This document shows, one piece after another, positions 10,255 through 62,270 of a stretch of 64,000 nucleotides of DNA. The stretch spans positions 33,951-97,950 of the forward strand of contig JAQBRH010000004.1 in assembly GCA_028286565.1 (NCBI GenBank), in the 5' to 3' direction. The stretch is from Parcubacteria group bacterium. Its GTDB lineage: Bacteria; Patescibacteriota; Minisyncoccia; Phycocordibacterales; Zambryskibacteraceae. The notes beneath the pieces were generated by a model. The model was not told where the DNA came from. It did no database searches and saw only the letters and a program-made list of their open reading frames with translations. The position numbers and the translations under genes are program-made. The number at the start of each line of letters is the position of its first letter. Position 1 is the stretch's first letter.

Positions 10255-10287
10255 AGTACCTTACCACATATGCTAGGATAGCCGAAT

Positions 10288-23736: not shown

Positions 23737-24137
23737 TATACCTTAGGCATTTCAGCTATAAATGCAAACAATTCCCAAATATGACCATTAATATCGCGAA
23801 ATGCTTTTCCATACATAAAAGCTTCAGATTCGGGACTATCCTTTGTTACGTCTACAGCACCGGACGTAGTAGCTTTTTCAAAGAAAGCATCTACTTCACT
23901 CTTTGAATCAAACTGTAATGCAATGGTCAGGTTATTATTGATTGCTTCCGGATTACCTCCGACAAAAGTTGCAAATCGCTTGTCCTCCAACAACATAACA
24001 AAAGTATTTTCGTTGATCTTTGCATTAGTGGTATCTTCACTGCTGAATTGTTCATTCTTCACCATTCCTAGCGATGCAAAGAATGTATCAGTGTCAGCAA
24101 CATTTCTAATCGGCAAGTTAATGTATGTATTTTTCAT
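23736..24137 (-). CDS. VOC/glyoxalase-bleomycin-resistance family protein
   Basis: INLPIRNV...FFASLGM and ...HIWELF VOC-type beta-alpha-beta-beta-beta modules. AT-rich coding sequence. Confidence 0.6.
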   Translation of the reverse strand: MKNTYINLPIRNVADTDTFFASLGMVKNEQFSSEDTTNAKINENTFVMLLEDKRFATFVGGNPEAINNNLTIALQFDSKSEVDAFFEKATTSGAVDVTKDSPESEAFMYGKAFRDINGHIWELFAFIAEMPKV

Positions 24138-24163
24138 ATATAAAAGTATATCAAGAAAACCTC

Positions 24164-24197
24164 CAGCTGGTCCTGTGGGACGAAGGTGGAACCATTC
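24164..24197. repeat. Array repeat R6
   Basis: ccagctggtcctgtgggacgaaggtggaaccatt. Confidence 0.8.
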
Positions 24198-24209
24198 TAG
24201 GGCAGGTCC

Positions 24210-24572
24210 CTATTCCTCAGGTTCATCATTGATACCCAGCTTTGATTGAATAGCTTGTCGTATCCACCACGTCGCATAGGTTGAGAATTTATAATCAGCT
24301 TTATAATCATATTTTTCCACGGCTTTAAAAAGGCCCAGGTTACCATTTTGAATAAGATCCAATTGAGAAACATTCTGCTCGTTGTCTTTGTATGCTTCCG
24401 CAATCTTCGCTACTAATCGCAAATTCCCCTTGGCTAAAAGATTCTTTGCTTCATCATCATTATTTTCCTTAATTCTTTTAGCCAGCTTTTTCTCTTCTTC
24501 ACCGGAAATAAGTAGATATGCTGATATCTCATTAAGGTAATCTTCTAATTTTTCCTGTTCAGTTTTTTCCAT
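24210..24572 (-). CDS. Truncated sigma-70-like protein (regions 1.2-2.4 only; possible fragment or decoy)
   Basis: NLRLVAKIAEAY...LDLIQNGNLGLFKAVEKYDYKADYKFSTYATWWIRQAIQ matches RpoD region 2. Only 120 aa; lacks regions 3-4. Confidence 0.6.
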   Translation of the reverse strand: MEKTEQEKLEDYLNEISAYLLISGEEEKKLAKRIKENNDDEAKNLLAKGNLRLVAKIAEAYKDNEQNVSQLDLIQNGNLGLFKAVEKYDYKADYKFSTYATWWIRQAIQSKLGINDEPEE

Positions 24573-24623
24573 GATATGTATCTAAACGTTTATTCACTAG
24601 GATGCTTTCCCTTTAAAATCATA

Positions 24624-24660
24624 AGAGCCAGCCATGTGGGACGATGTTGGAACCTTTTTT
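24624..24660. repeat. Array repeat R7
   Basis: agagccagccatgtgggacgatgttggaacctttttt. Confidence 0.8.
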
Positions 24661-24662
24661 AA

Positions 24663-25193
24663 CTATTCCTGAGGAAAACCATACTTCTCACGTATTTCCC
24701 TAGTGTATTGCTCTATTGGTTCTAATCCAATCTCTGCCCTTCTTTCGTCAACGTGTTTTTCATCTTCTATAGGCTCAGGTCTGAAGTTTCCATCCCTATC
24801 TCTAAATTGAGTTCCGTAAACCTGTAAACCATGCTCACTTACTCGTATTCGATCTTCTAAGTACGCAACATGTTTTCTATCTACCTCCTCGGGCGATTCT
24901 GCTTTCATAAGTTCAAGACACTTTTTTTGAAAATCTTTATCGTGATCTGCGTGTTGAATTAATAGCCATGCATTACGAACACCTATTGCTCCAACTTTAG
25001 ATGTAGTGGGCCATCCGATTTCAACAACAATTTCCTTTAATCTTTCTGTATTTCTTTTATCAATTTCGTTATCCCAATACTCATCATCTACAAGATTCTT
25101 TTCTCGCATATCTTGGTCTACCTTAACCATTGTTTCTAATTCAGAAGCGATCTCTGGATTAAGCATGACTTTAGGAGTTTCTTCATTATTCAT
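24663..25193 (-). CDS. Hypothetical protein
   Basis: 176 aa, acidic. GWPT...NAWLLIQHADHD motif. No family assigned. Confidence 0.5.
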   Translation of the reverse strand: MNNEETPKVMLNPEIASELETMVKVDQDMREKNLVDDEYWDNEIDKRNTERLKEIVVEIGWPTTSKVGAIGVRNAWLLIQHADHDKDFQKKCLELMKAESPEEVDRKHVAYLEDRIRVSEHGLQVYGTQFRDRDGNFRPEPIEDEKHVDERRAEIGLEPIEQYTREIREKYGFPQE

Positions 25194-25200
25194 ATACCTA

Positions 25201-25246
25201 GAATATCACGAGCTGGGCCCTGGGGTACGAAGCTGGAACCTATTTT
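25201..25246. repeat. Array repeat R8 (promoter-half plus core)
   Basis: gaatatcacgagctgggccctggggtacgaagctggaacctatttt. Confidence 0.85.
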
Positions 25247-25827
25247 ACAGCTATAAAGTGAAAAACATGCCAGTGCTTCGTCTCTCCCGCAGCAGTTTTG
25301 CCATCTTTTTCTTCTTCACTGAACTCCGCAATCTTTAGTCCCTGCAGCAATGACTCCGCCTCTTCTTTAGTCTGAAATGTCATATCTCTACCTTCTACAT
25401 TCCACTCATCTCTATCTCCGAAGAATTGTCCGACAAATACACCGCCTGGTTTTAACGACTTAATAATTGATTGAATAACATCATTAAATTTTCCTTTAGA
25501 AGTAAACGGTAAAGAATACTGAGCGTTAATCAGATCATACGCACCTTCTACAAAATCAAAATCTTCAAAAGAACTTATTTCGTATGTGACTTTTTCGGCG
25601 GGAAGTTGCTCGAGCACTTCTCCAGAGACTGGGTTCTTATCGACAGCTGTAACATGCTCAAATCCTACAGACAAAAGATACCTCGTATCATTAAGTGCCC
25701 CTGATCCAAGATCCAATGCTTCATGTTTGTCTTGAACTAATTCGACAGCGTTAACCAAAGAAGGTCTTGGTGGCGTTTCTTTAGTTTGTTCGTAGTATTG
25801 CTCCCAGTTATGTTCACTCATGGGCAT
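25240..25827 (-). CDS. Class I SAM-dependent methyltransferase (TehB-like)
   Basis: LDLGSGALNDTRYLL motif I, VTAVDKNP, LKPGGVF. Confidence 0.7.
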   Translation of the reverse strand: MPMSEHNWEQYYEQTKETPPRPSLVNAVELVQDKHEALDLGSGALNDTRYLLSVGFEHVTAVDKNPVSGEVLEQLPAEKVTYEISSFEDFDFVEGAYDLINAQYSLPFTSKGKFNDVIQSIIKSLKPGGVFVGQFFGDRDEWNVEGRDMTFQTKEEAESLLQGLKIAEFSEEEKDGKTAAGETKHWHVFHFIAVK

Positions 25828-25837
25828 ATGATATCAG

Positions 25838-25878
25838 AATTTCGCTAGCTGGCCCTGGGATGAGGTTGGAACCTTTAT
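25838..25878. repeat. Array repeat R9
   Basis: gaatttcgctagctggccctgggatgaggttggaacctttat. Confidence 0.8.
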
Positions 25879-26399
25879 ACCGTAACAATCTTCAGATCTG
25901 CCGTATCAATTGTGCCTTTATAGAGAATATGAGGAACCAGATGGAATCCCATGGGGATCATGCCTGCTTCAATAGTTTCCTTATAGTATTCAGTGGTTGC
26001 CTCCGGTAGATAGGCATATTTCTCGACTTCATTCGGATCATAGGCCAGATAATCATCTTCTGGAGGAGGAGTCCCCTTTTCGCGTGGGGAGTTTAAATAC
26101 ACCACAGTCTTTTCTAGCTCTAGCTTTTCTGCAGGGATCTCAACATAACTTAAGGCGAAACCTTTTCCCAACTTCCGCATTTCCCTATCAACAATGCTCG
26201 GATTCAATGCACTCAGATGAAGTACGTCGTTCCACAAACAACCCAGCCTCTTTATTCTTCTTTGCAACAAAATTTCACGGCCTTCGTACTTCTTTACATG
26301 TGCCTGATACGCATCGGGGAAAATGTTTTTAAGCGTATTCAAGGGATATAGTACGGTTCCCTGCATTCCTTTGGGAACTATATGATAGACGAATGCCAT
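25875..26399 (-). CDS. Hypothetical protein
   Basis: 174 aa. No repeat between it and the downstream isochorismatase gene, suggesting a two-gene unit. Confidence 0.5.
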   Translation of the reverse strand: MAFVYHIVPKGMQGTVLYPLNTLKNIFPDAYQAHVKKYEGREILLQRRIKRLGCLWNDVLHLSALNPSIVDREMRKLGKGFALSYVEIPAEKLELEKTVVYLNSPREKGTPPPEDDYLAYDPNEVEKYAYLPEATTEYYKETIEAGMIPMGFHLVPHILYKGTIDTADLKIVTV

Positions 26400-26429
26400 A
26401 TGGGAGTAGTGTAACAGAAATTCGTTTAA

Positions 26430-26936
26430 TCAAAACTTGATCAAGAGATCCGCTGTATTTTCATAAAAAGACGTATGGGCCTTAAACCAGGTCTTATTTT
26501 TACGAGACAACCTTCCCTCCTTGTTGCTTACACTAGCTATAAGACTCTCTGCCGTTGAAACTTTATAGCCTCTTTTCATTGCTCCTATTGCTGTATCCTG
26601 AACGCATGCATTGGCATTAACTCCAATAATAATGAGGTTCTTTATCTTTAGGCTACGAAGAATTTTATCCAGATGGGTTTTTGTGAATCCACTATTGCTC
26701 TCCTTAATGATTATTTCTTCCGCGACTTTGCGAATTAATTTTTCTAATATAGGAGTTGTTCTTCCTCTGTCTTTGCCTCCAGCTTTATACTCAAAAACAA
26801 CCACCGGAATATTTTCTTTTATGCATCTACGAAGGATCTTACCTTGCTCTGCAATTAATTTTTCCTTAATATGAGCAGGAAAATTCTTTAGGAAAAAATC
26901 CTGCATATCCATCACAACGACTGCGGCATTCTTCAT
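26430..26936 (-). CDS. Isochorismatase-family cysteine hydrolase
   Basis: VVVMDMQ, conserved Lys, and the GVNANACV catalytic Cys motif. Confidence 0.7.
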   Translation of the reverse strand: MKNAAVVVMDMQDFFLKNFPAHIKEKLIAEQGKILRRCIKENIPVVVFEYKAGGKDRGRTTPILEKLIRKVAEEIIIKESNSGFTKTHLDKILRSLKIKNLIIIGVNANACVQDTAIGAMKRGYKVSTAESLIASVSNKEGRLSRKNKTWFKAHTSFYENTADLLIKF

Positions 26937-26960
26937 ATTTTAAGTATACCAGCACAAGTT

Positions 26961-27000
26961 TCGCTAGCTGGCCCTGTAGTACGATGTTGGAACCTTTGTA
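26961..27000. repeat. Array repeat R10
   Basis: tcgctagctggccctgtagtacgatgttggaacctttgta; followed (minus strand) by TGGTATACT extended -10 and a leaderless ATG. Confidence 0.8.
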
Positions 27001-27042
27001 GAAAAAGAAAAAGACCGCCTGTAAGCGATCTGCTAGTCAGAA

Positions 27043-27450
27043 TCACAGTCCTCCAAAAACATGGAGACTGTCCTTTCCCGAAGAACCTCTTGGATAGTAT
27101 TCCAGCGTGAACTCCACTGAATCTGGCATGCCTTCTGGAAGATGAGCGATCTGGTTTCCACGATACGGGATACCCCGAAAGAAGATGTTTATGAGCGATG
27201 TCAAAGCGTCAGCGATCTCTTCTTTTGAAAATTGGAAACGCTCTGAGTCAGAGATTTCACGCGGATCAGTTCCCCTCTTTGTTTCCTTCCCTATTACCTC
27301 CGCACTTATTTCAACTTCGAGGATTTCGGGTGGTACAAAGGAAGACCGAGCGATCCTGTAAGGAAAAAATACATGCCCAGTTCTCCTTGCGATGAATTCA
27401 GCAATCGCATCACCGAATTGCTGGGCAGCAATTCTTTCGTAATCAGGCAT
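27043..27450 (-). CDS. Hypothetical protein
   Basis: Start re-placed at ATG 27450 (MPDYERIAAQQ). The listed ORF starts at a TTG. Confidence 0.45.
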   Translation of the reverse strand: MPDYERIAAQQFGDAIAEFIARRTGHVFFPYRIARSSFVPPEILEVEISAEVIGKETKRGTDPREISDSERFQFSKEEIADALTSLINIFFRGIPYRGNQIAHLPEGMPDSVEFTLEYYPRGSSGKDSLHVFGGL

Positions 27451-27527
27451 AACACCTTCCAAGGCAAGATGTGGTCTGTGGTAGAACTTATCTGGTAATT
27501 AAAATACTACTTATTACAGTAAAGTCA

Positions 27528-27562
27528 AGTTGCTGGCCCTGTGGCACGAAGTTGGAACTTAT
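27528..27562. repeat. Array repeat R11
   Basis: agttgctggccctgtggcacgaagttggaacttat; followed (minus strand) by TTGACT-N16-TATTTT promoter-like sequence. Confidence 0.8.
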
Positions 27563-27565
27563 ATA

Positions 27566-27590
27566 AAAACCCAGGATTACCTGGGCGTTG
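27566..27590 (-). terminator. Rho-independent terminator at the 3' end of 27577..27792
   Basis: CCCAGG-ATTA-CCTGGG hairpin followed on the minus strand by TTTTTAT; overlaps the stop codon. Confidence 0.5.
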
Positions 27591-27792
27591 TAGAAGGCGC
27601 TTTGTAATTCGGCTGCGCCTCTGGTAGATCAAGCAGTGTTCTAGCCACAAGGGCACACACAAGAGCACAGAGAACAAATGTAACTCTCGTACTCTTTTGC
27701 TTGAATGTTACTCCCTTCATGAAAAGCAGGAGGGCGAGGAGGCCAAGGATCAAAGAAGCGGCAAGCGGGTGTGCAAACATGTGTTTCTCCAA
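27577..27792 (-). CDS. Hypothetical small membrane protein
   Basis: 71 aa, two hydrophobic helices, RBS GGAGA upstream. Confidence 0.4.
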   Translation of the reverse strand: MEKHMFAHPLAASLILGLLALLLFMKGVTFKQKSTRVTFVLCALVCALVARTLLDLPEAQPNYKAPSTTPR

Positions 27793-27864
27793 AAGATGTG
27801 AAGATTCTACTGCCAGGGGTCGTTTCTGAATATAAATTACAACTAAAAAAGTCTTAAGTCAAAT

Positions 27865-27900
27865 CTGCTGGCCCTGTGGTACGAAGTTGGAACTTTTTAA
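27865..27900. repeat. Array repeat R12
   Basis: ctgctggccctgtggtacgaagttggaactttttaa; followed (minus strand) by TTGACT-N17-TAATTT. Confidence 0.8.
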
Positions 27901-28382
27901 AGCTTCCCTCTTAATTCCAAGGCTCTTTCCATTATCCTTTCGCCTCTCTTCCCCCAATCAAAGTATTGCTTATATTCCTTAGGATCAATAAGTTTTATTT
28001 CTTCTATCTCGTTATCTGGATCTTTCACAAAATCACCATAAGGTTCAACTATACAAACACTCCTTGTCTGCCTAATAATTCTCCCCGGCTCATAAACATC
28101 TTGGAAACCTATTAGCGATTGGCTGAGAACTCGCATATTAGTTTCTTCCCTTACCTCCCGGATCACTGCTTCTTCATATGTTTCTCCTGGCTCTATTCCT
28201 CCGCCTGGCGGCATCCAGCCACTTTTTGGGTGATGGACTACTACCATTTTATCTCCATAGAAACAGAAAGCATGAACCCCTTGGAGCAACTTCCCTTCCA
28301 TATCAAATAACGGGTCTGATTCTTTATATATAATTTCAACTTCCTGACCCAATCTGTTTACATGAATAGATTTAATTTCCAT
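27897..28382 (-). CDS. NUDIX hydrolase
   Basis: NUDIX box GGGIEPGETYEEAVIREVREETNM. Confidence 0.75.
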   Translation of the reverse strand: MEIKSIHVNRLGQEVEIIYKESDPLFDMEGKLLQGVHAFCFYGDKMVVVHHPKSGWMPPGGGIEPGETYEEAVIREVREETNMRVLSQSLIGFQDVYEPGRIIRQTRSVCIVEPYGDFVKDPDNEIEEIKLIDPKEYKQYFDWGKRGERIMERALELRGKL

Positions 28383-28390
28383 CAGTTAAG

Positions 28391-28435
28391 ACTACCACGA
28401 GCTCGCCCTGTGGTACGAAGTTGGAACCTTTTTAC
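28391..28435. repeat. Array repeat R13 (promoter-half plus core)
   Basis: actaccacgagctcgccctgtggtacgaagttggaacctttttac. Confidence 0.85.
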
Positions 28436-28516
28436 AACCTTCTATTATTGACAACATCTAGGACATGATTCATATTGAACCCAGAGTACAACCCAACAAC
28501 GAATAGGAGACAAGAC

Positions 28517-28768
28517 ATGTCGAACGAGAAGTATTTCCGAGATCTGGCACCTGGGGAATTGTTTTCCTTCCAGTCGCCCACTTCCGATCCAGTCGTGGAG
28601 CCGGCCTCATACCTCGTCAAACTGAATGAGGATGAGTATCTGATGGAGCGAGGACATGGAACATTGCGCTTCATGAACTTCGAAAAGTCTCGCACTCTAG
28701 TAGTGAGCCACGGCATGGAAGACCAGGCCAATTTCGAACAGATGCTCGCTGCTTGGCCAAGGGAATAA
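28517..28768 (+). CDS. Hypothetical protein (opposite orientation inside the array)
   Basis: RBS AGGAGA 7 nt before ATG 28517. Preferred over the overlapping minus-strand ORF 28432..28791 on composition and RBS. Confidence 0.4.
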   Translation: MSNEKYFRDLAPGELFSFQSPTSDPVVEPASYLVKLNEDEYLMERGHGTLRFMNFEKSRTLVVSHGMEDQANFEQMLAAWPRE

Positions 28769-28782
28769 TCCCCGGCCCCTAC

Positions 28783-28830
28783 TTCCCACACATTCGCTTA
28801 ATTGAAAGGTGTGGGGATTTTCATAACTAA
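28783..28830. terminator. Bidirectional terminator between convergent genes
   Basis: CCCACAC...(19 nt)...GTGTGGG hairpin followed by GATTTTCAT. Confidence 0.45.
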
Positions 28831-28863
28831 AATAATCGAACGCCTGGTACTAAGTTTTAGAAT

Positions 28864-29367
28864 TTAGAGAACACACTTCCTAAGGACATCTGCAGCAATG
28901 CGACAATCTTCAAGCGCATCGTGCGACCCTCTTGGTTTTGCACCAAAAGCTTGAAAAATATCTTCAGAATTCATCCCTCCCTGGTAGCCGGTTTTAAGTA
29001 GATGAGTGTAAGCGATAGGCCAAATATCCAACACATGATAGTCATACTGTTCTTCTCCATTTCTTGAAGCTGTAAGCGTTCTTAAATGCTTCATGTCGAG
29101 CTCAGCCACAAATGAAGCGATGATCACATTGCTTCCGAATCTTTCAAAGAATTCTTGTCCTACTTCTGCTTGAGATGGAGCACCATTAAGCATCTCTTGA
29201 GTGATGCCGGACTTTACACTTGATCTCCCCTGCAGATTTGCGTGTATATAACTCACAAAAGAATCTTTTTCAGCCAGAGTGTCTTTATCTAGGAGAATGG
29301 CACCTATTTGTTTTGGTGCTCTCATTCCTTCAAAATCTATAACCAAAATATCTTTGGGGAATTTCAT
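28864..29367 (-). CDS. DEDDh-type 3'-5' exonuclease domain protein (RNase T/oligoribonuclease-like)
   Basis: VIDFEG N-terminal acidic motif and a C-terminal HDALEDCR motif. Confidence 0.55.
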   Translation of the reverse strand: MKFPKDILVIDFEGMRAPKQIGAILLDKDTLAEKDSFVSYIHANLQGRSSVKSGITQEMLNGAPSQAEVGQEFFERFGSNVIIASFVAELDMKHLRTLTASRNGEEQYDYHVLDIWPIAYTHLLKTGYQGGMNSEDIFQAFGAKPRGSHDALEDCRIAADVLRKCVL

Positions 29368-29370
29368 ATC

Positions 29371-29420
29371 TCTAGAATATCACGAGCTGGCCCTGTGGGA
29401 CGAAGTTGGAACCTTTTTAG
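29371..29420. repeat. Array repeat R14 (promoter-half plus core)
   Basis: tctagaatatcacgagctggccctgtgggacgaagttggaacctttttag; fills the whole 49-nt stop-to-start gap. Confidence 0.85.
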
Positions 29421-29842
29421 CTGTTTGACTCTTTGAAATCTCCAAATGCTTTACGGATAACGTCAAGTAAGGGCTTCTTATCTGCATAAACATATTCTTT
29501 GCCCACCCTTCGAACGAATTCCTCTGGACCAACTGGCCATCCATAAAATTCTAAGGTCTCTCGATTTTGTGTTAAAAGATGAGAAAGAGTTTCAGGTTCA
29601 TATACAAACAAAGCTCCTTGGGTACCAATTAAAGTTGTGTCTCTATTTGTGAGTAGAACAGGAATTAAGCCATTTTCTTTTGCATGATCAATTTCTTCTT
29701 GAACAGAAATATGAAAATATCTCTCCATAGAATCAACGGGTAAATATCCTACGGATTTGTGAGGGCCGAGATTGCGAATGTGTTCAAGGGCTTCTAACCT
29801 TTCTTTCTCAAATAGATCAGATGCGGTTGGTTCTTGCTCCAT
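29417..29842 (-). CDS. Hypothetical protein
   Basis: 141 aa, AT-rich coding. Last gene of the array before the tRNA-Gln region. Confidence 0.45.
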   Translation of the reverse strand: MEQEPTASDLFEKERLEALEHIRNLGPHKSVGYLPVDSMERYFHISVQEEIDHAKENGLIPVLLTNRDTTLIGTQGALFVYEPETLSHLLTQNRETLEFYGWPVGPEEFVRRVGKEYVYADKKPLLDVIRKAFGDFKESNS

Positions 29843-29859
29843 AGATTAATACTATAACA

Positions 29860-30074
29860 AAGTTCGAGTCCCTATTGGTTGCTGCCGATCAGGGACTCGC
29901 TCCTTACAGGAACAGGACAGAATTCGTCAGGGACTCGGTCACTCATAAAATTCTCCTGAATTTTTGTGCGACCCCGCCTCGGCCCGCCGGCCTCCGGCTT
30001 TCGAGTCCGCGCGACGCTTCGCATGTGCGAAACTGCGCCTGATCGGCAGCAAAACACGCTGCGCTTTCGTTTTG
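29860..30074. repeat. Mosaic of direct and inverted partial copies of the tRNA-Gln 3' end (T-arm/acceptor)
   Basis: 19-nt direct copy gctgccgatcagggactcg at 29881-29899 (identical to 30075-30093). Inverted T-loop fragments at 29862-29873 and 30003-30012. Inverted copy cctgatcggcagcaaaac at 30038-30055 forms an 18-bp hairpin with the tRNA 3' end. Confidence 0.75.
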
Positions 30075-30145
30075 CTGCCGATCAGGGACTCGAACCCCAA
30101 TTAACCGCTCCAGAGGCGGTCGTCCTACCATTAGACGAATCGGCA
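30075..30145 (-). tRNA. tRNA-Gln (anticodon CTG)
   Basis: Hand-folded cloverleaf: acceptor TGCCGAT/ATCGGCA with U1-A72, D-stem GTCT/GGAC, anticodon stem ACCGC/GCGGT with loop CTCTGGA, T-loop TTCGAGT, discriminator G. Four-nt variable loop. Confidence 0.6.
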
Positions 30146-36610: not shown

Positions 36611-37492
36611 TTACAATTTTTCCTCTGCTTCGATGAATTCGTCGAGGTCGCCGTCTTCGAGGACCTTGTCCGCATTCGACGTCTCGACGTTCGTGCGGTG
36701 ATCTTTGACCATCTTGTATGGATGGAGGACGTACGAGCGGATCTGGCTTCCCCATTCGTTCTCGGTCGTCTTTGAGATGTACATCCCGCTCTCCGCGGCC
36801 TTCCTCTCCGCTTCTAATTTTTTATAGAGTTTCGCTTCGAGCATTTCCATGGCGCGCGAGCGATTGTCCGCCTGGCTTCGTTCGCTCTCGACGTGAACGG
36901 CGAGCCCGGACGGGATGTGGACGAGGCGGACGGCAGTCTCTCGCTTGTTCACATTTTGTCCGCCGGGTCCCGAGGACTTTGAATATTCGATCTTGAGGTC
37001 TTCCGGAGGGATGTTCACTTCGCCTTCCTTTTCGAATTTTGGGATGACCTCGACCATGGAGAACGACGTCTGGCGGATGTCACCTTTGCCGAACGGCGAA
37101 ATGCGCACGAGGCGATGGACGCCGGATTCGTTCTTCAGCGTCCCATACGCGCCCTTGCCTTCCACATCGAGGGTGATGTTCCTGTATCCGTTGTGATTGT
37201 TCTCGTTCTTGTTCAAGACGAAATATTTAAAATTCTTTCGTTCAAAGTACTTCATATACATTTCAAGCAGCATGCGGGTAAAGTCTTCGGCGTCGTCGCC
37301 TCCCGCGCCCGAGTAAATGGTCATGACCGCATTGCCCTTGTCATATTTCCCCACACCTTCGAGTTCGTCTTTGAGGTTCTGCAGTTCTTTGATGGTCGCC
37401 TGGGCCTTATCTTTGTTCGACCAAAAATCCGCCGCACTCATCTCGGCTTCAATAGATTCTATTTTCTTTTTGATCTCATCAGGGGATGCCAT
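36611..37492 (-). CDS. prfB: Peptide chain release factor 2 (N-terminally short; no programmed-frameshift leader)
   Basis: SPF motif (RISPFGKG) and GGQ motif (GPGGQNVNK). The start ATG abuts or overlaps the CCA end of tRNA-Thr. Confidence 0.85.
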   Translation of the reverse strand: MASPDEIKKKIESIEAEMSAADFWSNKDKAQATIKELQNLKDELEGVGKYDKGNAVMTIYSGAGGDDAEDFTRMLLEMYMKYFERKNFKYFVLNKNENNHNGYRNITLDVEGKGAYGTLKNESGVHRLVRISPFGKGDIRQTSFSMVEVIPKFEKEGEVNIPPEDLKIEYSKSSGPGGQNVNKRETAVRLVHIPSGLAVHVESERSQADNRSRAMEMLEAKLYKKLEAERKAAESGMYISKTTENEWGSQIRSYVLHPYKMVKDHRTNVETSNADKVLEDGDLDEFIEAEEKL

Positions 37493-39745: not shown

Positions 39746-39995
39746 TGAATTAATATATCAACCAAAATAGAACCTGGCAGATCCTTATATAAGTGTTGCG
39801 GGTACCCGATTTGCACGGATGCCTACAGGTTATGAGCCTGTCGAGGTACTGCTCCTCCAACCCGCTATCCCTATATTATACGCCATCTATTCCAAAAATC
39901 AAGATTTTGTATTATAGTTCCTGGACTTGCCGGTGTACTCTGTACGTCGGCTGCGTTCGGAGATAGAGGGTGTACACATCCTCTCCCCCTCACTT

Positions 39996-40066
39996 GCCGG
40001 TGTAGTTCAATGGTAGAACGGAGGACTCATAAGCCTTAGACAATGGTTCGATTCCATTCATCGGCA
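39996..40066 (+). tRNA. tRNA-Met/Ile2-type (anticodon CAT), elongator-like
   Basis: GCCGGTGTAGTTCAATGGTAGAACGGAGGACTCATAAGCCTTAGACAATGGTTCGATTCCATTCATCGGCA; G1-C72 pair, A31.G39 mismatch in anticodon stem. No encoded CCA. Confidence 0.6.
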
Positions 40067-40197
40067 CAAGGTGTGTTGTGACAGCACAAGAATTCTGTTA
40101 CATTACATCCGATTAGGGCACTTGCGGCAGTACTAAATCGTACATCCGCTCGGCTCGGAATCAATAGAAAAGCAAGCTTCTCAATTGTTCCTCACTT

Positions 40198-40269
40198 GCG
40201 GCTGTAGCTCAACGGTAGAGCACTCCCCTGTCACGGGAGAGGCCGTGGGGTCAGCACCCATCAGCCGCG
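40198..40269 (+). tRNA. tRNA-Asp-like (anticodon GTC) with non-canonical T-loop (GTCAGCA); possibly a pseudo- or atypical tRNA
   Basis: GCGGCTGTAGCTCAACGGTAGAGCACTCCCCTGTCACGGGAGAGGCCGTGGGGTCAGCACCCATCAGCCGCG; good acceptor, D and anticodon arms. T54 and A58 are replaced by G. Confidence 0.45.
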
Positions 40270-40272
40270 CAA

Positions 40273-40300
40273 AGAAAAATCCCTTCGGGGATTTTTTCGT
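40273..40300. terminator. Rho-independent terminator after tRNA-Asp-like gene
   Basis: AAAAATCCC-TTCG-GGGATTTTTT. Confidence 0.65.
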
Positions 40301-40581
40301 GCGGACTGAAGAAATGTCTAAACGACATTTCGTTGGGTGCTGACGGCCGGAGCGATGTCCCGCAAGTATGCGGGACCGCGAGGCGGGGTCGCGAAATTTC
40401 TGAGCGGCGGCGAAGAAATATTTGTGACCAGCACCCGAGTTGTTTATCAGCCGCGGCATGACAAGCTGCGTCACTGAATTCTTGCCTCTAGAACTTTAGA
40501 TTCTAAATTAGAACTTGACATTATATCATAAGTATGATTTACTAACTTCAGTTAGCACCCAAGCCCTCACAGGAGCAAAAC

Positions 40582-40767: not shown

Positions 40768-40851
40768 ACACCTGCCGCTTGATACACAAATTCCAATGTG
40801 GATCGAGCGGTTTTTTAATGGCAGTTCCAACATCCTCCCCTACCCCGCGCA

Positions 40852-40882
40852 AAGAAAAAACTCCAACTTCGGAGTTTTTATA
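40852..40882. terminator. Bidirectional rho-independent terminator
   Basis: AAAAAACTCC-AACTTC-GGAGTTTTTAT; overlaps the stop of 40878..41534. Confidence 0.6.
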
Positions 40883-57693: not shown

Positions 57694-58068
57694 ATGTCCA
57701 CGAAAATACACGGCTCGATCGTCCGTACGCTCTACGCGAATGCGCACTCCGTCGGAGTCAACGTCTTTATGGATCAGCAATACAAATACGGCTTCGAATT
57801 CGTCATTCGCGAAACCGGCGAGAGGATCCTCCGAACAAAGCCGTTTCTCCTGAGCCAACATGTGACAGCCTGGATAGTGAACGACTTCCTTACACAGGTG
57901 CGGCTCGGCGTAGAAAAGAAGTGCGCCGAACAAGGGATACGCCCTTACACTCACTTCGGAGTCGGCGCCTTCGATGTCCTTGATGAGCTGGCGATCGAAG
58001 GGCTGTACTTCGACGCTGTCCAGCAGCTCGTCCAGGGCGCAAACTCGACTGCTTCGCAGCCCGCCTGA
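57694..58068 (+). CDS. Hypothetical protein
   Basis: In frame with the long listed ORF 57334..58068, but the upstream part has an atypical Pro/Arg/Gly-rich composition. ATG 57694 chosen; start uncertain. Confidence 0.4.
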   Translation: MSTKIHGSIVRTLYANAHSVGVNVFMDQQYKYGFEFVIRETGERILRTKPFLLSQHVTAWIVNDFLTQVRLGVEKKCAEQGIRPYTHFGVGAFDVLDELAIEGLYFDAVQQLVQGANSTASQPA

Positions 58069-58069
58069 T

Positions 58070-58100
58070 CGTCCGAACTTCGGTTCGGCTTTTTTATTTT
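58070..58100. terminator. Bidirectional rho-independent terminator
   Basis: CCGAAC-TTCG-GTTCGG followed by CTTTTTTATTTTT. Confidence 0.65.
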
Positions 58101-58143
58101 TATAAAGAAAAAGACCCGAACATTGTGCTCGGGCCTACGGCGG

Positions 58144-58455
58144 TCAGAGGAAGGCGTACCTGTTGAATATCTCCGCCCAGAAGGGTCCTTTGTTGAAGAC
58201 GGGCTGGATCACCCCATCTTCCCCTCTCTTCACGGACATGGCGAGCACTTCGCGCGTCTCCGTGAGCGTCAGATTAGGGACACAGAGTGCGTGGATCATG
58301 TCACCGGGGCGAAGTTCGATCGCCACAGCCCTCGGGAGCCACACGACGAATCCGTCGAGATCCTTGATGGAGGCCTCCTCACCGTCGATCCTGAGGGAGT
58401 GAATCTCGAACCTCACCTTGACCACAGAAACAGAATTGCAGGCAACGATTTTCAT
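58144..58455 (-). CDS. Hypothetical small beta-rich protein (TOBE/PRC-barrel-like?)
   Basis: Start re-placed at ATG 58455 (MKIVACNSVSVVKVRFEI...). Weak similarity only. Confidence 0.4.
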   Translation of the reverse strand: MKIVACNSVSVVKVRFEIHSLRIDGEEASIKDLDGFVVWLPRAVAIELRPGDMIHALCVPNLTLTETREVLAMSVKRGEDGVIQPVFNKGPFWAEIFNRYAFL

Positions 58456-58821
58456 CGGTCGCACCGGTTCAAGGGAAGAAAAAACGACTCTGGCATGAGA
58501 GTAACACACCAAAAACTACCTGTCAACTGCCCCGCTTCTTCCCTGCCTCGGCTACTTCTTATCCTTGTCTCCCTTTGCCTTCTTCGGCTTCTTTACTTCC
58601 TTGCGTCGCGAATTATTTCCTTTGGCCATAAATTTTTATTTAAAGTTATTGGATAAGTATAGCAAAAAATAACTTATGGCCCGAGCTGTTGGGTTAACCC
58701 GAACTTGGATAATGGATGATTACAGCTCGTTTTATATCACTTCTTCTATATTTCGAAAAACACCATTATCGCAGTTAGCAATCTATATTCGGGTTATTAA
58801 TGCTTACTCTGAAGTTGTGAA

Positions 58822-59127
58822 TTAGGCGTGATTTCTATCTTTAAGTTTAAATACAGAAATTGTAAAAATTACAGCTCCTACAATATCTAGGATGTGCCAA
58901 GTCTCTTTTGAAAAATAGAAAGGTGAAATTGGATTGAAAATAATCATTAAACCAATAAAAATCCAGAACCAGATTTTATTACCTAATTTATTTGACAGAT
59001 ATGCCAAGTACAAGCTGACCCCAGCCACTATCCACCGAAGAACTTGGTAAAAACTATATGGATGTGTACCAAGTGCAAGGATAAGAACTACAGCTACTAT
59101 CAATCTTAGCCCTGTATTTTTTGTCAT
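58822..59127 (-). CDS. Hypothetical membrane protein
   Basis: Start re-placed at ATG 59127 (MTKNTGLRLIVAVVLIL). AT-rich coding. Confidence 0.45.
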   Translation of the reverse strand: MTKNTGLRLIVAVVLILALGTHPYSFYQVLRWIVAGVSLYLAYLSNKLGNKIWFWIFIGLMIIFNPISPFYFSKETWHILDIVGAVIFTISVFKLKDRNHA

Positions 59128-59131
59128 AAGT

Positions 59132-60976
59132 TTATGAGCAGGCGCCCTTATAAAGAATCTCCCCGAGACTTTCAGGAATAACGTTTTGCCAATCTTGTTC
59201 TCCGGAAGAACGCCCCGCATTACCGGAAATATCATAAGCAGTAGAGGACAAGGGTTTTACTCTTCTGCCAGCGCAGTCAATTTCAAGATTTTGCTGCACA
59301 GAAGTCTTAAGATTTGTATCAGTCGACTTTAGCCATAAATCAACTAGACTTCCTTTTGAAAAATCGAGAGTTTCAATGTCGAGTCTATATTCCATCGCAC
59401 CGTTATTAGATAGCATCTTCCACCTATCCATCGTTTGTACATATTTTTTATCGTATCTTAGTGCCCGTTTATATTCACTACTTGCATTTTTATAGTCGCC
59501 CTTATTCAAGTAAGTCGCTGCTCTGTCTGCATATAGTCCAGCCAGTATGAAATCATCATTGGGATTAGTATTTTTTTGATACTGACCTACAAAGTCAGCG
59601 GAGCTCATATTAGGAAAATATTTCTGCCGCAGCCCTTCAAGCAAATCTTTGTCTGAGATATTAGTTAGCTCAGGATACGTGTCCCGTATCTGTTCTAAAC
59701 TCATCAAGAATAGATTGTTGCTAAGCACTACTCCAATAGCCTTGCCGTAATCATCAATGGCATTGTCATAATTTCCGACCTCAATATTTACCTTAGCCCT
59801 ATTCTCATAAGTAGAGTACAGAGAACTGAGCATAGGATTAGCCTGATTTTTCGTAATTGCAGTCGTAAAATCACTGATAGCACCGTAATAGTCTTTCGTA
59901 TAATCTTTAGACAAACCTCTATCATTATAGGCCCCAGCATTATCGGGAGTTAACTCAATAACTTTGTCATAGTAAGGAATAGCATCAGAGTACTGTTTCA
60001 AACTGTAAAAAGATTCTGCGATCTGAGCGTAGGCATCAGTAAAGGTAGGGTCATTTTTAATAGAATTCTGGAAGTGTTTAAGCGCGACTGCATTTACCTT
60101 GTCCCTGAATCCACCCGAACCTGAGACGTCAGCCCATGCGGCTTTCGTCAAAAAAGTACCTTTTTGCGCAGTTCTTCCAAGAAGAAATTCAACCAAGGCA
60201 GAGCCTGGATTAAGCTTCAACGCTTGCTGGAGGTCATCAAGGGTTGGAGAAAAATATTTTTCATCGTATGAGGTAAAGGTGCTATAAAATAAACCTCTAA
60301 ACATGTAGGCCAGATAGTCATTTGGGTAATGATTTACAAGAGTATCTAAATCAGTTTTTTGCAAAGCAGTCGGGTTAGAAACTTCTTCTGGTTTTACTCC
60401 GCCTGTATTAAACATGTCCGATGTATCATTCGGATTTATTTTCACACCAATTTCCAGGTCCTTCATAGCTTGACCATAATCCTTAAGAGCCAAATCGGTT
60501 TTTGCTCGCAGACTATAAAGTGAAGCAAGTGAATTTGAAGTTTCAAAAGCAGAATACTTTTTATTTTTAGTTGAAGAATATTTGATTGCTTTGTCTATAT
60601 TATTTTTTATTTCGACATAGTCTGGATCATCGGTCGCAAGTTGAAAAGTCGATTTAAGGGTATATAAAGTAGAAAAGTCTGGGTACTTTACTAAAAGCTT
60701 ATCGATAACACTAACGGCCTCTTCGTTCTTTTTTGAATCTTTTCCATCTTTGGCTAATTCAATGGCAGATAAGACATCCTTGCTTATTTGTTTTTGCTCA
60801 GAGGTTACTGAGTTTTTAATATTGAATTCAGAACTTAATTCAGATAGTCCTATCTTCTCGATAGCTAGACCCTCTGCTTTGACCACATCTGAGTTAGAAA
60901 AAGAGGCTCTGAAAGCAAAGAGGCATCCGACTAACACAATAACTAATCCAATGCCTTTTGCTAAGCTTCGAAACAT
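59132..60976 (-). CDS. Tetratricopeptide (TPR) repeat protein with N-terminal membrane anchor
   Basis: Multiple 34-aa repeats with the W/LG/Y...A...F/Y...A...P pattern (for example AIPYYDKVIELTPDNAGAYNDRG). Start re-placed at ATG 60976. Confidence 0.7.
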   Translation of the reverse strand: MFRSLAKGIGLVIVLVGCLFAFRASFSNSDVVKAEGLAIEKIGLSELSSEFNIKNSVTSEQKQISKDVLSAIELAKDGKDSKKNEEAVSVIDKLLVKYPDFSTLYTLKSTFQLATDDPDYVEIKNNIDKAIKYSSTKNKKYSAFETSNSLASLYSLRAKTDLALKDYGQAMKDLEIGVKINPNDTSDMFNTGGVKPEEVSNPTALQKTDLDTLVNHYPNDYLAYMFRGLFYSTFTSYDEKYFSPTLDDLQQALKLNPGSALVEFLLGRTAQKGTFLTKAAWADVSGSGGFRDKVNAVALKHFQNSIKNDPTFTDAYAQIAESFYSLKQYSDAIPYYDKVIELTPDNAGAYNDRGLSKDYTKDYYGAISDFTTAITKNQANPMLSSLYSTYENRAKVNIEVGNYDNAIDDYGKAIGVVLSNNLFLMSLEQIRDTYPELTNISDKDLLEGLRQKYFPNMSSADFVGQYQKNTNPNDDFILAGLYADRAATYLNKGDYKNASSEYKRALRYDKKYVQTMDRWKMLSNNGAMEYRLDIETLDFSKGSLVDLWLKSTDTNLKTSVQQNLEIDCAGRRVKPLSSTAYDISGNAGRSSGEQDWQNVIPESLGEILYKGACS

Positions 60977-60977
60977 T

Positions 60978-61220
60978 TTATTTTCTATAATAGTTCTTAG
61001 TTCCACTTTTACCCGTATAAGGGTTGTAACTACCCTTACTTGAGTAATTATCGGATTTATAACTATTCGGAGAGGTTTTATAGTAGCTATTTACATAAGT
61101 TCCTGTCGAAGGTTTATAGTACCCATTAACACGAACAGTCTTTGCTTCGACTGAATGAAACGCTCCCAAACCTAGAGCCAGAATCAGAATCAGAAACCCT
61201 ATAAATACTGAATTTTTCAT
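60978..61220 (-). CDS. Small secreted Tyr/Lys/Ser-rich protein
   Basis: Signal peptide, then YYKPSTGTYVNSYYKTSPNSYKSDNYSSKGSYNPYTGKSGTKNYYRK low-complexity repeats. Confidence 0.45.
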   Translation of the reverse strand: MKNSVFIGFLILILALGLGAFHSVEAKTVRVNGYYKPSTGTYVNSYYKTSPNSYKSDNYSSKGSYNPYTGKSGTKNYYRK

Positions 61221-61360
61221 GGGTTCAATTAATTAACTTATATTCACTATAGACCCCATTCAAAGTAAAGCAAGTCAAGTCAGAACCCGTCCTAATTCTT
61301 TCCTCTTTTCAAAATTTCAAGCAGAGCTCGACGCACTAACGTCACGTAGGCTAGGAGTTG

Positions 61361-61837
61361 TTAAATTCTCCTAGCCACAGTACTGTTCTCATTTTTCAAT
61401 TCAATTTCTAGGAGCTGTTTTCTTTTAATTGATAACTCCAAATCAATTCTTGCTCTTAATTCTTGAGCGATAACTGGCACATAATTTTGAAACGTAAGAA
61501 ATCCAATTCCAGCTTCTTCACAGTGTTTCCTAACATCAATATCACGTTTTTTTGTCTTCGGATTATTATGAGATTCCCCATTTAATTCAATTGCTAGTAA
61601 TGGCTCGAGCGTGCTGATATCAAAGAGTGCAAAATCCACAGACCATCGACTTACGTGCCCTACTGCGTATTTAATTTTTCCAATATACGATCCGTAGACT
61701 GGAGCAATTAATTTCTCGACATGAACTTGTGGGACCAACAGATAATCATTTCCAACTGCCAATTTTAGCTCCTTATACAGAATTCGCTCATTTGTATTTA
61801 GAAGAGGTTTTTGTCTTTTAAACTTCGGTTCAAACAT
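61361..61837 (-). CDS. DUF2726-like protein (PD-(D/E)xK nuclease-related fold)
   Basis: VDFALFD...LAIELNGESH core resembling the DUF2726/NERD-like restriction-endonuclease fold. Confidence 0.5.
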   Translation of the reverse strand: MFEPKFKRQKPLLNTNERILYKELKLAVGNDYLLVPQVHVEKLIAPVYGSYIGKIKYAVGHVSRWSVDFALFDISTLEPLLAIELNGESHNNPKTKKRDIDVRKHCEEAGIGFLTFQNYVPVIAQELRARIDLELSIKRKQLLEIELKNENSTVARRI

Positions 61838-61856
61838 ATATTATGGCCATGCCTAT

Positions 61857-62270
61857 TTAAACTACATAACTCGTATCTTCTTCAAAGAACCCGTACATCA
61901 CGACCCCCGCAGCAATGATTGAAGATACCGCAGCTAATATTGTCCAGACAAGATTTAATTGATTGATTATAGAGATAAGAAGTGAAAAAGTTGAGATGAC
62001 TACAACCAGGGCGGCTAAAATCATAGAGACAATCTTTTTATGACTTGGGGCGACCCTGGAACCATAATACACGCAAGCGGCCGCACTAATTGCCGAAGAG
62101 AATATCCAGTAGTTTATTTTAGCCCAACCCGAGTCAGGGCCAACTCCAGTGAGCCACTGTTGCAAGGAAAAGAAAACATTTGCCAACATACCTCCCAATA
62201 CATAGGTTAGTCCTGCTGTAGGTAAAACAGCTACCCATCGACCTACTACTTTAAGAGTATGTGTGGACAT
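61857..62270 (-). CDS. Hypothetical membrane protein
   Basis: 137 aa, four hydrophobic helices. Confidence 0.45.
   Translation of the reverse strand: MSTHTLKVVGRWVAVLPTAGLTYVLGGMLANVFFSLQQWLTGVGPDSGWAKINYWIFSSAISAAACVYYGSRVAPSHKKIVSMILAALVVVISTFSLLISIINQLNLVWTILAAVSSIIAAGVVMYGFFEEDTSYVV

Follow-up and report, generated by a model that had tools for sequence, protein, structure and literature searches.

Islands and prophages that target tRNA genes at the T-loop sublocation supply a replacement 3' end and carry a direct repeat at the far end. Here we describe a small structured element that directly follows a tRNA-Asp(GUC) gene in a chromosome segment of a Patescibacteria (candidate phyla radiation, CPR) bacterium (contig JAQBRH010000004.1). 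The whole 64-kb stretch analyzed, called the window below, has six tRNA genes by ARAGORN. As in tRNA-targeting integrative elements, the site used runs from the T-loop to the 3' end, the tRNA is kept intact, a direct repeat lies at the far end, and copies accrete in tandem. A repeat of the tRNA 3' part brackets the insert, as expected of an attachment (att) site duplication, and the element itself contains no integrase. The family to which the element belongs differs from integrative elements in being only ~150–250 nt long (~170 nt in the window) and in having no integrase in the loci inspected, and it differs from att sites in that the target is also copied in antisense and the structured core is conserved and covaries. 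The finding sits among known kinds, i.e., tRNA-targeted insertions and tRNA-linked small RNAs.

Group I introns, which occur in CPR tRNAs (PMC8172020), are also inserted in a tRNA loop, carry an internal complement of the flanking tRNA, and give a tRNA-with-insert fold. In contrast to them, the present element sits in the T-loop and not the anticodon loop, and its ~105-nt core has no P3–P9 catalytic core. Intron_gpI gave no match at the window element, in a scan that does detect an intron in a related locus, L002. A further analogy may be drawn with the Correia elements of Neisseria, the Rickettsia palindromic elements (RPEs), and pneumococcal BOX, which are likewise short, multi-copy, and protein-less and, as proposed here, are co-transcribed with neighboring genes and form stable RNA. 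Unlike these, the family has a strict site at tRNA 3' ends, flanks copied from the target in both senses, and a multi-helix junction with independent covariation in place of simple terminal inverted repeats. Set against the definition of miniature inverted-repeat transposable elements, the family is multi-copy, but its repeats are 8–40-nt copies of the target tRNA and not element termini.

CPR bacteria make up a large share of bacterial diversity and have very small genomes. In the sequences studied here, a sizeable fraction of tRNA genes bears a conserved 150–250-nt structured appendage of this sort: two of the six in the window, and several per short contig elsewhere.

The element behind tRNA-Asp and its family

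The tRNA-Asp locus is laid out as follows.

40198-40270, + strand: tRNA-Asp(GUC) gene (ARAGORN; Rfam tRNA, RF00005, 59.3 bits against a gathering score of 29, at 40198-40269)
40250-40256, + strand: aberrant T-loop GUCAGCA (G54 U55 C56 A57 G58 C59 A60), as read from the letters
40269, + strand: discriminator G73, read likewise; CCA is not encoded
40270-40300, + strand: trailer and a hairpin of A-tract, GC stem, and T-tract, which resembles an intrinsic terminator and folds (stem 40274-40283 with 40288-40297)
40301-40309, + strand: anti-acceptor segment GCGGACTGA, antisense to the acceptor 3' strand TCAGCCGC of the tRNA, with one additional A
40311-40331, + strand: hairpin hp1, GAAATGTC-TAAAC-GACATTTC, between the two antisense segments
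40333-40344, + strand: anti-T segment TTGGGTGCTGAC, antisense to tRNA positions 54–65; 5' strand of helix P1
40335-40439, + strand: three-way-junction core (covariance model R1; cmsearch 107 bits, E = 1.8e-26)
40346-40384, + strand: helix P2, with invariant internal loop GGA/GA; tandem G.A pairs 40350.40381 and 40351.40380
40357-40376, + strand: apical hairpin of P2, GTCCCGCA-AGTA-TGCGGGAC, which covaries in homologues
40388-40428, + strand: helix P3, with apex CUGA (40400-40403) opposite GAAGAA (40412-40417)
40429-40456, + strand: sense copy of the tRNA 3' part, i.e., CAGCACCC, a 9-nt insert, and ATCAGCCGCG(G)
40551-40565, + strand: weaker, degraded sense copy of the T-loop/T-stem and the start of the acceptor strand, GTTAGCACCCAAGCC (GTTAGCACCCA at 40551-40561; repeats D9 and I6)
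40840-40880, + strand: copy of the tRNA-Asp 3' end and trailer, CCGCGCAAAGAAAA, then another TTCGG-loop hairpin (direct repeat D1)

An 11-nt perfect inverted repeat (I5) relates TGGGTGCTGAC at 40334-40344, in the anti-T segment, to GTCAGCACCCA at 40250-40260, in the T arm of the tRNA. The first-pass annotation had reported this match as one of 10 nt and placed it one position off. By chance, ~0.6 matches with at most one mismatch are expected in 64 kb; three are observed, all within 310 nt of each other. TGGGTGCTGAC mirrors all four changes of the T-loop, position 54 included, whereas the sense copy does not contain position 54. That sense copy of the T arm and acceptor end, also recognized at first pass, consists of CAGCACCC at 40429-40436, equal to tRNA nt 56–63 and forming the 3' strand of P1, and ATCAGCCGCG(G) at 40446-40455/6, equal to nt 64–73. 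The weaker sense copy at 40551-40561 had escaped the first-pass annotation.

For 40301-40475 the fold has an energy of -82.8 kcal/mol (z = -5.4), and 200 shuffles gave no structure as stable. All the features of the family are present at 40301-40456: helixes P1, P2, and P3, the GGA/GA loop, the TTCTGAGCGNCGGCGANGAA apex, a position 3' of a tRNA, and matched flanks. Of three tight hairpins proposed earlier, GAAATGTC/GACATTTC and GTCCCGCA/TGCGGGAC covary, but CGCGA-GGCGGGG-TCGCG is unsupported, and the family consensus replaces it with the pairings of P2 and P3. Similarly, a clean terminator had been called at 40273-40300. A hairpin is indeed present at 40274-40297 and, from its letters, is plausible as a terminator, but a simple terminator scan did not pick it up, probably because A/T pairing lengthens the stem and consumes the T tail. 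The stem can be extended over the tRNA 3' end through inverted repeat I3 (40268-40283 with 40288-40303). A promoter scan found no convincing promoter specific to the element.

A homologous stretch lies behind the tRNA-Asp of a Paceibacterota locus, L009. The blocks GGGGTCGCGA, TTTCTGAGCGRCGGCGARGAAA, and TTGTGACCA are identical in the two; their hairpins differ in sequence and keep the pairing. A metagenome scan with the apex motif returned 120 loci, of which ~30 have the whole architecture and the others are an unrelated repeat or GC-rich coding DNA. With covariance model R1, cmsearch finds 49 copies at E ≤ 1e-8 on CPR-type metagenome contigs, several of which hold two or three copies, some in tandem. 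A further copy, at tRNA-Gln in the window, comes from a separate scan of the window and is counted in addition to the 49. The model would let annotators recognize regions that would otherwise be called spurious open reading frames (ORFs), such as the 97-aa, GTG-start ORF on the reverse strand at 40181-40474.

The core of the family, ~105 nt long, is a three-way junction of P1, P2, and P3. P1 closes the junction, and its sequence is variable. P2 contains the invariant GGA/GA internal loop, with tandem G.A pairs, and a hairpin loop that is mostly AGCA or AGUA. In the 49-sequence alignment, compensatory changes are found at all P2 pairs save an invariant C-G, with 94–97% of cells paired. P3 has a conserved length, one bulge, and the apex UCUGA...nGAnGAA; the block TTCTGAGCGNCGGCGANGAA and the loop GCGNCGGC are invariant.

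Covariation supports this junction. A 24-sequence MAFFT alignment has 90.5% of cells paired (74.5% when shuffled; 33–48% in slid controls) and 119 double-change cells, compared with 36 in shuffled sequences. In the 49-sequence alignment, which was fitted to model R1 and is thus biased towards structure, 92.5% of cells are paired (69.3% shuffled; 36–48% in slid controls), double changes occur in 28 of 29 pairs, and the covariation score is 0.61 versus 0.20, a level reached by none of 500 shuffles. The independent MAFFT alignment agrees with this picture. One G.U pair, in P3 (alignment A2, columns 120/157), is kept by 37 of 48 sequences. Overall, 87 G.U/U.G pairs stand against 13 A.C/C.A, which indicates that the folded strand is the tRNA-sense strand. 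The opposite strand was considered as the functional one and rejected on this ratio and on its weaker fold (-68.6 versus -82.8 kcal/mol).

At the P3 apex of the window element, tandem G.A pairs 40402.40413 and 40403.40412 are followed by U.N and then C-G. We take this arrangement, with its tandem sheared-type G.A, to be the box D'(CUGA)/C'(nGAnGA) kink-loop (K-loop) pattern. In the modeled fold, then, the apical motif of P3 looks like a K-loop of the box C'/D' type.

Model R1 does not cover every relative. Other subfamilies, with alpha-type cores or with copies that end in AGGAG, receive low R1 scores or none (the first element of each tandem pair in L233, L279, L316, L209, and L297; also L267, L273, L254, and L248). 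They keep the GAGCG...GCGA apex and the antisense and sense tRNA flanks. Antisense runs of 12–13 nt without an R1 match also accompany the Gly and Pro tRNAs of L268, the Lys tRNA of L264, and the Gln tRNA of L009.

The family is uncatalogued, having no match in Rfam 15 or in the searchable literature, where a full-text search found no description of it. For 40301-40470, Rfam 15 gives no match at E ≤ 10 save a weak Atu_C8 that reaches 40305 (21.4 bits, E = 0.24). Across 10 member loci no family matches consistently at E ≤ 5. Neither for the window nor for 30 member contexts does ARAGORN call a transfer-messenger RNA (tmRNA); a tag reading frame is absent, and the Rfam tmRNA families are not significant. 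Identities as tmRNA, RNase P RNA, signal recognition particle (SRP) RNA, 6S RNA, riboswitch, or ribozyme were rejected on the empty Rfam scans of the window and the 10 loci. The first-pass annotation had likewise seen no tmRNA, RNase P, or SRP features, which ARAGORN and Rfam confirm; the known Rfam family that it allowed for as an explanation of the region did not appear.

A linked protein was rejected after ORF clustering and inspection of loci. Proteins encoded within 4 kb of the 49 copies form no family that recurs in more than 3 loci, and 8 loci without a tRNA have no integrase-like or recurrent reading frame. A viral reservoir was also rejected: the exact apex motif has 5 matches in IMG/VR, none of them a family member, and a looser motif returns GC-rich noise.

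The copies are tied to tRNA genes. Among the 43 with upstream sequence, 33 have a same-strand tRNA 14–300 nt upstream, while an opposite-strand tRNA within 300 nt upstream is found for 0 of 49. The linked tRNAs span 15 amino-acid specificities. In every copy inspected, the interval between tRNA and core contains a perfect antisense run of 8–28 nt to the tRNA 3' acceptor strand and trailer, mostly continuing the arms of the terminator-like hairpin. In the class of copies that includes the window element, L009, L208, and others (class A), this run is followed by a variable hp1 and then by antisense to T-loop/T-stem nt 54–65. The hp1 position holds a hairpin of other sequence in L009, L208, L254, L273, L248, and the tRNA-Gln copy of the window. 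An equivalent of the anti-acceptor segment is found in class A homologues, and in every one of these the anti-T segment covaries with the local T arm. After the core, a sense copy begins at C56, directly following a conserved GTGAC(C). It can extend through the discriminator, CCA, trailer, and even the hairpin. Of 30 loci inspected, 19, all of class A, have such a sense copy, 7–26 nt in length, and in some it takes in the trailer and hairpin.

The extent of matching can be put in numbers. In class A, 13–23 (mostly 18–23) of the last 24 tRNA nt pair with downstream antisense sequence, whereas in the other class (class B) pairing is confined to the last acceptor bases (or CCA) and the trailer. 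The longest antisense run has a median length of 10 nt where a core follows the tRNA and of 6 nt where none does; outliers in the latter group belong to subfamilies missed by R1.

Two pairing states are predicted for the antisense copy. It may pair with the sense copy, giving P1 and an acceptor/T-arm-like helix, or with the tRNA's own 3' half. When tRNA and element are folded together, the minimum free energy structure (-137.7 kcal/mol, z = -8.9) joins the 5' acceptor strand of the tRNA to the distal acceptor copy and the 3' half of the tRNA to the antisense copy, and the same is seen at tRNA-Gln. Where the gene does not encode CCA, the antisense is complementary to the trailer and not to CCA. 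Thus, it is matched to the gene or primary transcript, and pairing would be in cis. A role as a primer-binding site or as a trans-acting antisense on mature tRNA was rejected on the same ground: the antisense runs into the trailer, not into UGG. Among the first-pass suggestions, that of a small structured RNA that can base-pair with the tRNA comes closest to the evidence, as the structure is real and the antisense tracks the local tRNA, odd loop included; the fit is to the gene or precursor trailer, not to the CCA-tailed mature tRNA.

The second copy in the window is disposed as follows.

29862-30073, - strand: second family member, 3' of tRNA-Gln(CUG) at 30074-30145 (cmsearch 40.7 bits, E = 7.5e-9)
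30055-30038, - strand: 18-nt perfect antisense to the tRNA end and trailer
30031-30018, - strand: hp1
30008-30000, - strand: anti-T segment
30009-29927, - strand: core (model R1)
29937-29927, - strand: sense copy 1
29899-29879, - strand: sense copy 2, full
29872-29862, - strand: additional anti-T copy

P2 and P3 are shortened in this copy, and no terminator-like hairpin stands between the tRNA and the antisense segment.

Relationships among cores do not follow the tRNA. The nearest neighbor of a core usually lies behind a different tRNA: L269 (Ile) and L219 (Lys) are 90% identical, and the Asp-linked core of L009 is 84–86% identical to Val and Leu copies. The Asp core of the window is nearest to a Pro-linked copy and not to the Asp copy of L009. 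These relationships suggest that the core moves between tRNA genes and that the flanks are re-matched afterwards. Leftover 3' ends and extra sense copies are present in the window at 40551-40565, 40840-40880, and 29899-29879, and by their sequence they mark repeated insertions. The copy at 40551-40565 is likely a remnant of an older insertion, and 40840-40880 may be the displaced original trailer and terminator.

Other repeats lie around the element. TTGTGAC stands directly 3' of the + strand tRNA-Met and is followed by AGCACAAG (40076-40090), a copy of the tRNA end GGCACAAG (region 40063-40101); 40076-40090 is likely a class B element's solo 3' footprint. Around the module of tRNA-Asp plus element stands a 15-nt inverted repeat with GAATTC (40087-40101 and 40470-40484), and a similar GAATTCTGT comes after the tRNA-Gln element.

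Explanations of the element

The explanation we favor, with confidence that is about evenly balanced, is that of a small non-autonomous insertion element whose conserved core would act as RNA, being read through from the tRNA promoter and closed by a minihelix in the modeled fold. The DNA layout is that of a tRNA gene with an insertion at T-loop position 55/56, the insertion starting with a spare 3' end. The element is proposed to have entered at this position, bringing with it a spare tRNA 3' end and the hairpin/terminator. Because a spare 3' end is supplied, the tRNA remains intact, and the displaced original 3' end is the downstream sense copy. This layout would result if a small circle or rod of order X-trailer-hairpin-antiX-core, where X is the tRNA 3' part, recombined with the tRNA gene by a single crossover. 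The first-pass idea of a split or atypical tRNA holds to the extent that the read-through transcript is predicted as a tRNA with a large T-loop insert; but an intact tRNA precedes the insertion, so that no splicing is needed.

Once inserted, the element would be expressed from the tRNA promoter through read-through. Closure of the core by the sense and antisense copies would give a domain resembling a tRNA minihelix, and through this closure RNase P, RNase Z, and the CCA-adding enzyme could release and stabilize the element, much as with a tRNA scaffold. The K-loop probably recruits a protein. Templated processes on DNA (palindrome correction or gene conversion) may maintain the fit of the antisense flank to the resident tRNA, as may selection, alone or in combination with them. 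If the element is mobile, it is an unusual case of a harmless insertion into an essential gene, with guide-like flanks that follow the target.

RNAs scaffolded on tRNA provide the comparison for the transcript, namely the tRNA-like domain of tmRNA, mascRNA, plant dicistronic tRNA-snoRNA (small nucleolar RNA), and phage P4 CI RNA. Like these, the element lies directly 3' of a tRNA on the same strand, and the acceptor-like stem, discriminator, and T-stem-like helix modeled for class A could be recognized by RNase P, RNase Z, and the CCA-adding enzyme. Unlike tmRNA and the others, it has no ARAGORN or Rfam match, a three-way junction replaces the T-loop, and the acceptor and T sequences are copied from the neighboring tRNA. 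Class B copies do not share the mimicry.

Several observations count against the insertion-element explanation. It does not account for the matching of an antisense flank to a new tRNA. Among the loci found there is none in free or excised form, and IMG/VR has no members; no recombinase, reverse transcriptase, or other conserved protein gene lies near the copies examined. P1 of class B is only 4–7 bp long and has no tRNA mimicry. The pairing between tRNA 3' halves and antisense copies is almost wholly Watson-Crick, which fits templating at the DNA level as well as, or better than, selection on RNA. Many copies have a terminator-like hairpin between tRNA and core, and this should restrict read-through. 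The homologues are all metagenome sequences. The related genome L002 has no element, which could mean loss and not mobility; when a remnant was sought there, the best cmsearch match (E = 0.3) lay elsewhere.

Two stronger versions, taken together, are a tentative possibility. In the first, the family is a new class of mobile element, a structured RNA or small circle that targets T-loops via an internal guide; such an element could carry a spare tRNA 3' end and have its guide re-templated from each new tRNA. In the second, it is a K-loop ribonucleoprotein tethered in cis that edits, repairs, or polices its own tRNA. If either is true, the most reduced bacteria contain a new RNA-based system.

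The alternative that survives best, which we nonetheless consider unlikely, is a host module acting in cis in tRNA precursor processing or quality control. In transcripts that continue past the hairpin, the antisense would zip onto the tRNA 3' half and trailer, and the long duplex would be a processing stalk for RNase III or another RNase, like the stems that flank rRNA, with the sense copy as a competitor or switch. The element would then be a vertically useful part of the tRNA operon and not a parasite. In agreement with this, the antisense matches the precursor, trailer included, in near-perfect duplexes of 20–40 bp with the tRNA 3' end; the core is strongly conserved; and no terminator separates tRNA-Gln from the antisense segment in the window. 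Elements also lie between co-oriented tRNAs in an operon-like order, Lys-element-Leu-element, in both L219 and L298. However, only some tRNAs bear the element, and a close relative has the same tRNA-Asp without it. Cores do not cluster by tRNA type, and the tandem, nested, and remnant copies resemble repeated insertion. A duplex that engulfs the acceptor and T arms would, moreover, destroy the tRNA instead of maturing it. Should a host RNA prove correct, it would represent an unknown step of tRNA expression or surveillance in CPR bacteria.

Improbable, in our judgment, is an element that works at the level of DNA. A folded single-stranded DNA hairpin would mimic the T-loop-to-3'-end site and be integrated by a tyrosine recombinase acting in trans (Xer-like or an integrase), the core being the structured spacer of the hairpin. 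The models are attP(+) of CTX phage, which integrates at dif through XerCD, and integron attC. As in these, an inverted pair of target-like sequences surrounds a spacer, folding is confined to one strand, structure is conserved more than sequence, and the integrated order, X, the rest, anti-X, a ~90-nt spacer, and X', is the product expected when a folded hairpin exchanges one strand with its target. Watson-Crick pairing is near-perfect in the X:anti-X arms, T-loop-to-3'-end is a classic tRNA integration site, and the element encodes no protein. In contrast to attP(+) and attC, the target is a tRNA gene, no recombinase is linked, and the core has an invariant CUGA/nGAnGA K-loop pattern and a conserved G.U pair, features typical of RNA-protein interaction. 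No source is known for a single-stranded DNA circle of 150–250 nt. Transcription fits both the co-orientation with the tRNA and the logic of the hairpin/terminator, and the matching of flanks to new tRNAs is left unaccounted for here as well.

More doubtful still is a guide or antisense RNA for the cognate tRNA. In such a scheme, similar to box C/D and H/ACA guides, the K-loop would hold an enzyme at a set distance along P3, where it would modify, cleave, or repair the T-loop/acceptor region bound by the antisense segment, with the sense copy as an auto-inhibitory mimic or a replacement 3' half. The box C'/D'-type motif caps a helix of conserved length, a possible ruler; two antisense segments parted by a hairpin have the topology of an H/ACA guide on its target; and the antisense segment in the window follows tRNA position 54. 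Precedents are the box C/D guide in the archaeal pre-tRNA-Trp intron and Cm56, which is guided by a C/D small ribonucleoprotein. The resemblance to archaeal box C'/D' K-loops, that of the intron guide included, lies in CUGA opposite nGAnGA and in an RNA linked to a complementary tRNA. Nop-domain Tas proteins are reported to bind box C/D motifs, and many tandem interspaced guide RNA (TIGR) loci to be in CPR bacteria (PMC12045711).

The differences from box C/D RNAs are substantial. The element has no terminal C (RUGAUGA) or D boxes. Its antisense lies ~60 nt upstream, with none adjoining the D'-like box; the bases 5' of CUGA are paired in P3, and the loop GCGNCGGC is itself invariant. The junction leaves no target nucleotide unpaired. 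It is the trailer, and not the CCA end of the mature tRNA, that the antisense matches, and the sense copy in cis would out-compete the folded tRNA. One guide per tRNA is uneconomical given a near-universal T-loop. A partner protein was not found among the proteins scanned: L7Ae, Nop5, and fibrillarin are absent from a Pfam scan of 10 neighboring proteins of the 64-kb window.

Finally, non-functional debris, either the decayed tRNA duplicate or the integration scar that the first-pass annotation had proposed, the latter as the att scar of an excised island, with hairpins arising by chance, is scarcely credible: integrative elements do leave sense copies of tRNA 3' ends, the sense copy here resembles such a footprint, and degraded extras lie at 40551-40565 and 40840-40858, but the covariation and recurrence contradict it, with compensatory changes over 49 copies behind 15 kinds of tRNA, z = -5.4, invariant motifs outside helixes, and the same architecture at tRNA-Gln of the window.

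The tRNA-Asp gene and its T-loop

The tRNA-Asp(GTC) gene reported at first pass is found by both ARAGORN and Rfam at the positions listed above. Its T-loop had been described as GTCAGCA lacking T54 and A58, and positions 54 and 58 are indeed both G: the T arm reads GTGGG-GTCAGCA-CCCAT. The canonical loop has U54 and A58, which form a reverse-Hoogsteen pair, along with U55 and C56; of these the window loop has U55 and C56. In E. coli, the tRNA-Asp identity set consists of G73, G34 U35 C36, C38, and G10. The set is complete in the window tRNA, with G73 at 40269, anticodon GTC, C38 in CTGTCAC, and G10 in TAGCTC.

Among the 91 tRNAs of all fetched loci, the G54/G58 loop occurs only in the tRNA-Asp of the window and in that of L002, the closest relative with the locus, whose tRNA-Asp is near-identical. 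More distant CPR genomes have the same T-stem in tRNA-Asp but a loop TTCAAAT. Since L002 keeps the loop, it is regarded as a lineage trait of a working gene and not as decay. We conclude from these comparisons of sequence that 40198-40270 is a real tRNA-Asp gene with a conserved T-loop of a rare kind; the motif is among the most highly conserved in tRNAs, and natural variants such as this one are rare.

The window and neighboring tRNA loci

The neighbors of the tRNA-Asp locus in a Pfam scan are gatC-gatA, the NAD-ligase gene ligA, an RF2-like release factor gene (prfB), and ftsEX. The closest GatA proteins, 71% and 69% identical, are from metagenome-assembled genomes of uncultured Saccharibacteria and Parcubacteria. 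A phage origin of the window was rejected, as matching phage DNA is limited to a 60-nt tRNA stretch and the neighbors gatCA, ligA, prfB, and ftsEX are housekeeping genes.

In the relatives L002 (9796-10670) and L009 (8204-9065), gatA is followed by tRNA-Met and tRNA-Asp, all on the same strand. In the window (39795-40270), the Met-Asp segment runs opposite to gatA, and there is a divergent pair of tRNA-Met genes, as in L004. The tRNA-Met at 39795-39866 (- strand) has a lower score, 47.5 bits; its 1-72 mismatch (A.A) is initiator-tRNA-like, and its T-loop is UGCAAAU, with G at position 55.

A duplication on the 5' side is seen at both the + strand tRNA-Met and tRNA-Asp. A leader copy (CACTT) with the 5' acceptor strand (ACTTGCCGGTGTA; CACTTGCGGCAGTA) lies ~70 nt 5' of each gene (39925-39937, 39992-40004, 40119-40132, and 40193-40206). 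A partly complementary stretch comes after each 5'-side copy, and CCTCACTT precedes both genes.

Two low-GC islands, at 24000-30000 and 58000-62000 (37–43%, against about 54% elsewhere), are rich in short hypothetical ORFs. The first terminates at the locus of tRNA-Gln plus element. The release-factor gene at 36611-37492 (- strand; 293 aa, PCRF and RF-1 domains) covers only the C-terminal half of the PCRF profile. Its start adjoins tRNA-Thr, and the gene may be truncated or have an unannotated upstream frame (frameshift).

The tRNA loci of L002 appear to be hot spots for mobile elements. At 8779-8991 (- strand) and 9930-10590 lie a group I intron match of 73 bits, a LAGLIDADG-like frame between tRNA-Met and tRNA-Asp, and a GIY-YIG-like frame 3' of tRNA-Asp. 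In L010 (11540-11745), a complete tRNA-Asp is nested inside the halves of another tRNA-like sequence (GCGGCCGTAGCTCAGCTGGTTAGAGCGCCCGCCTG ... GCGGGGTCACGGGATAGATTGCCGGTTCAAATCCGGTCGGGCGCGCCA). L047 has a related sequence without the nested tRNA, and in L010 the flanks of the nested tRNA-Asp are complementary to each other.

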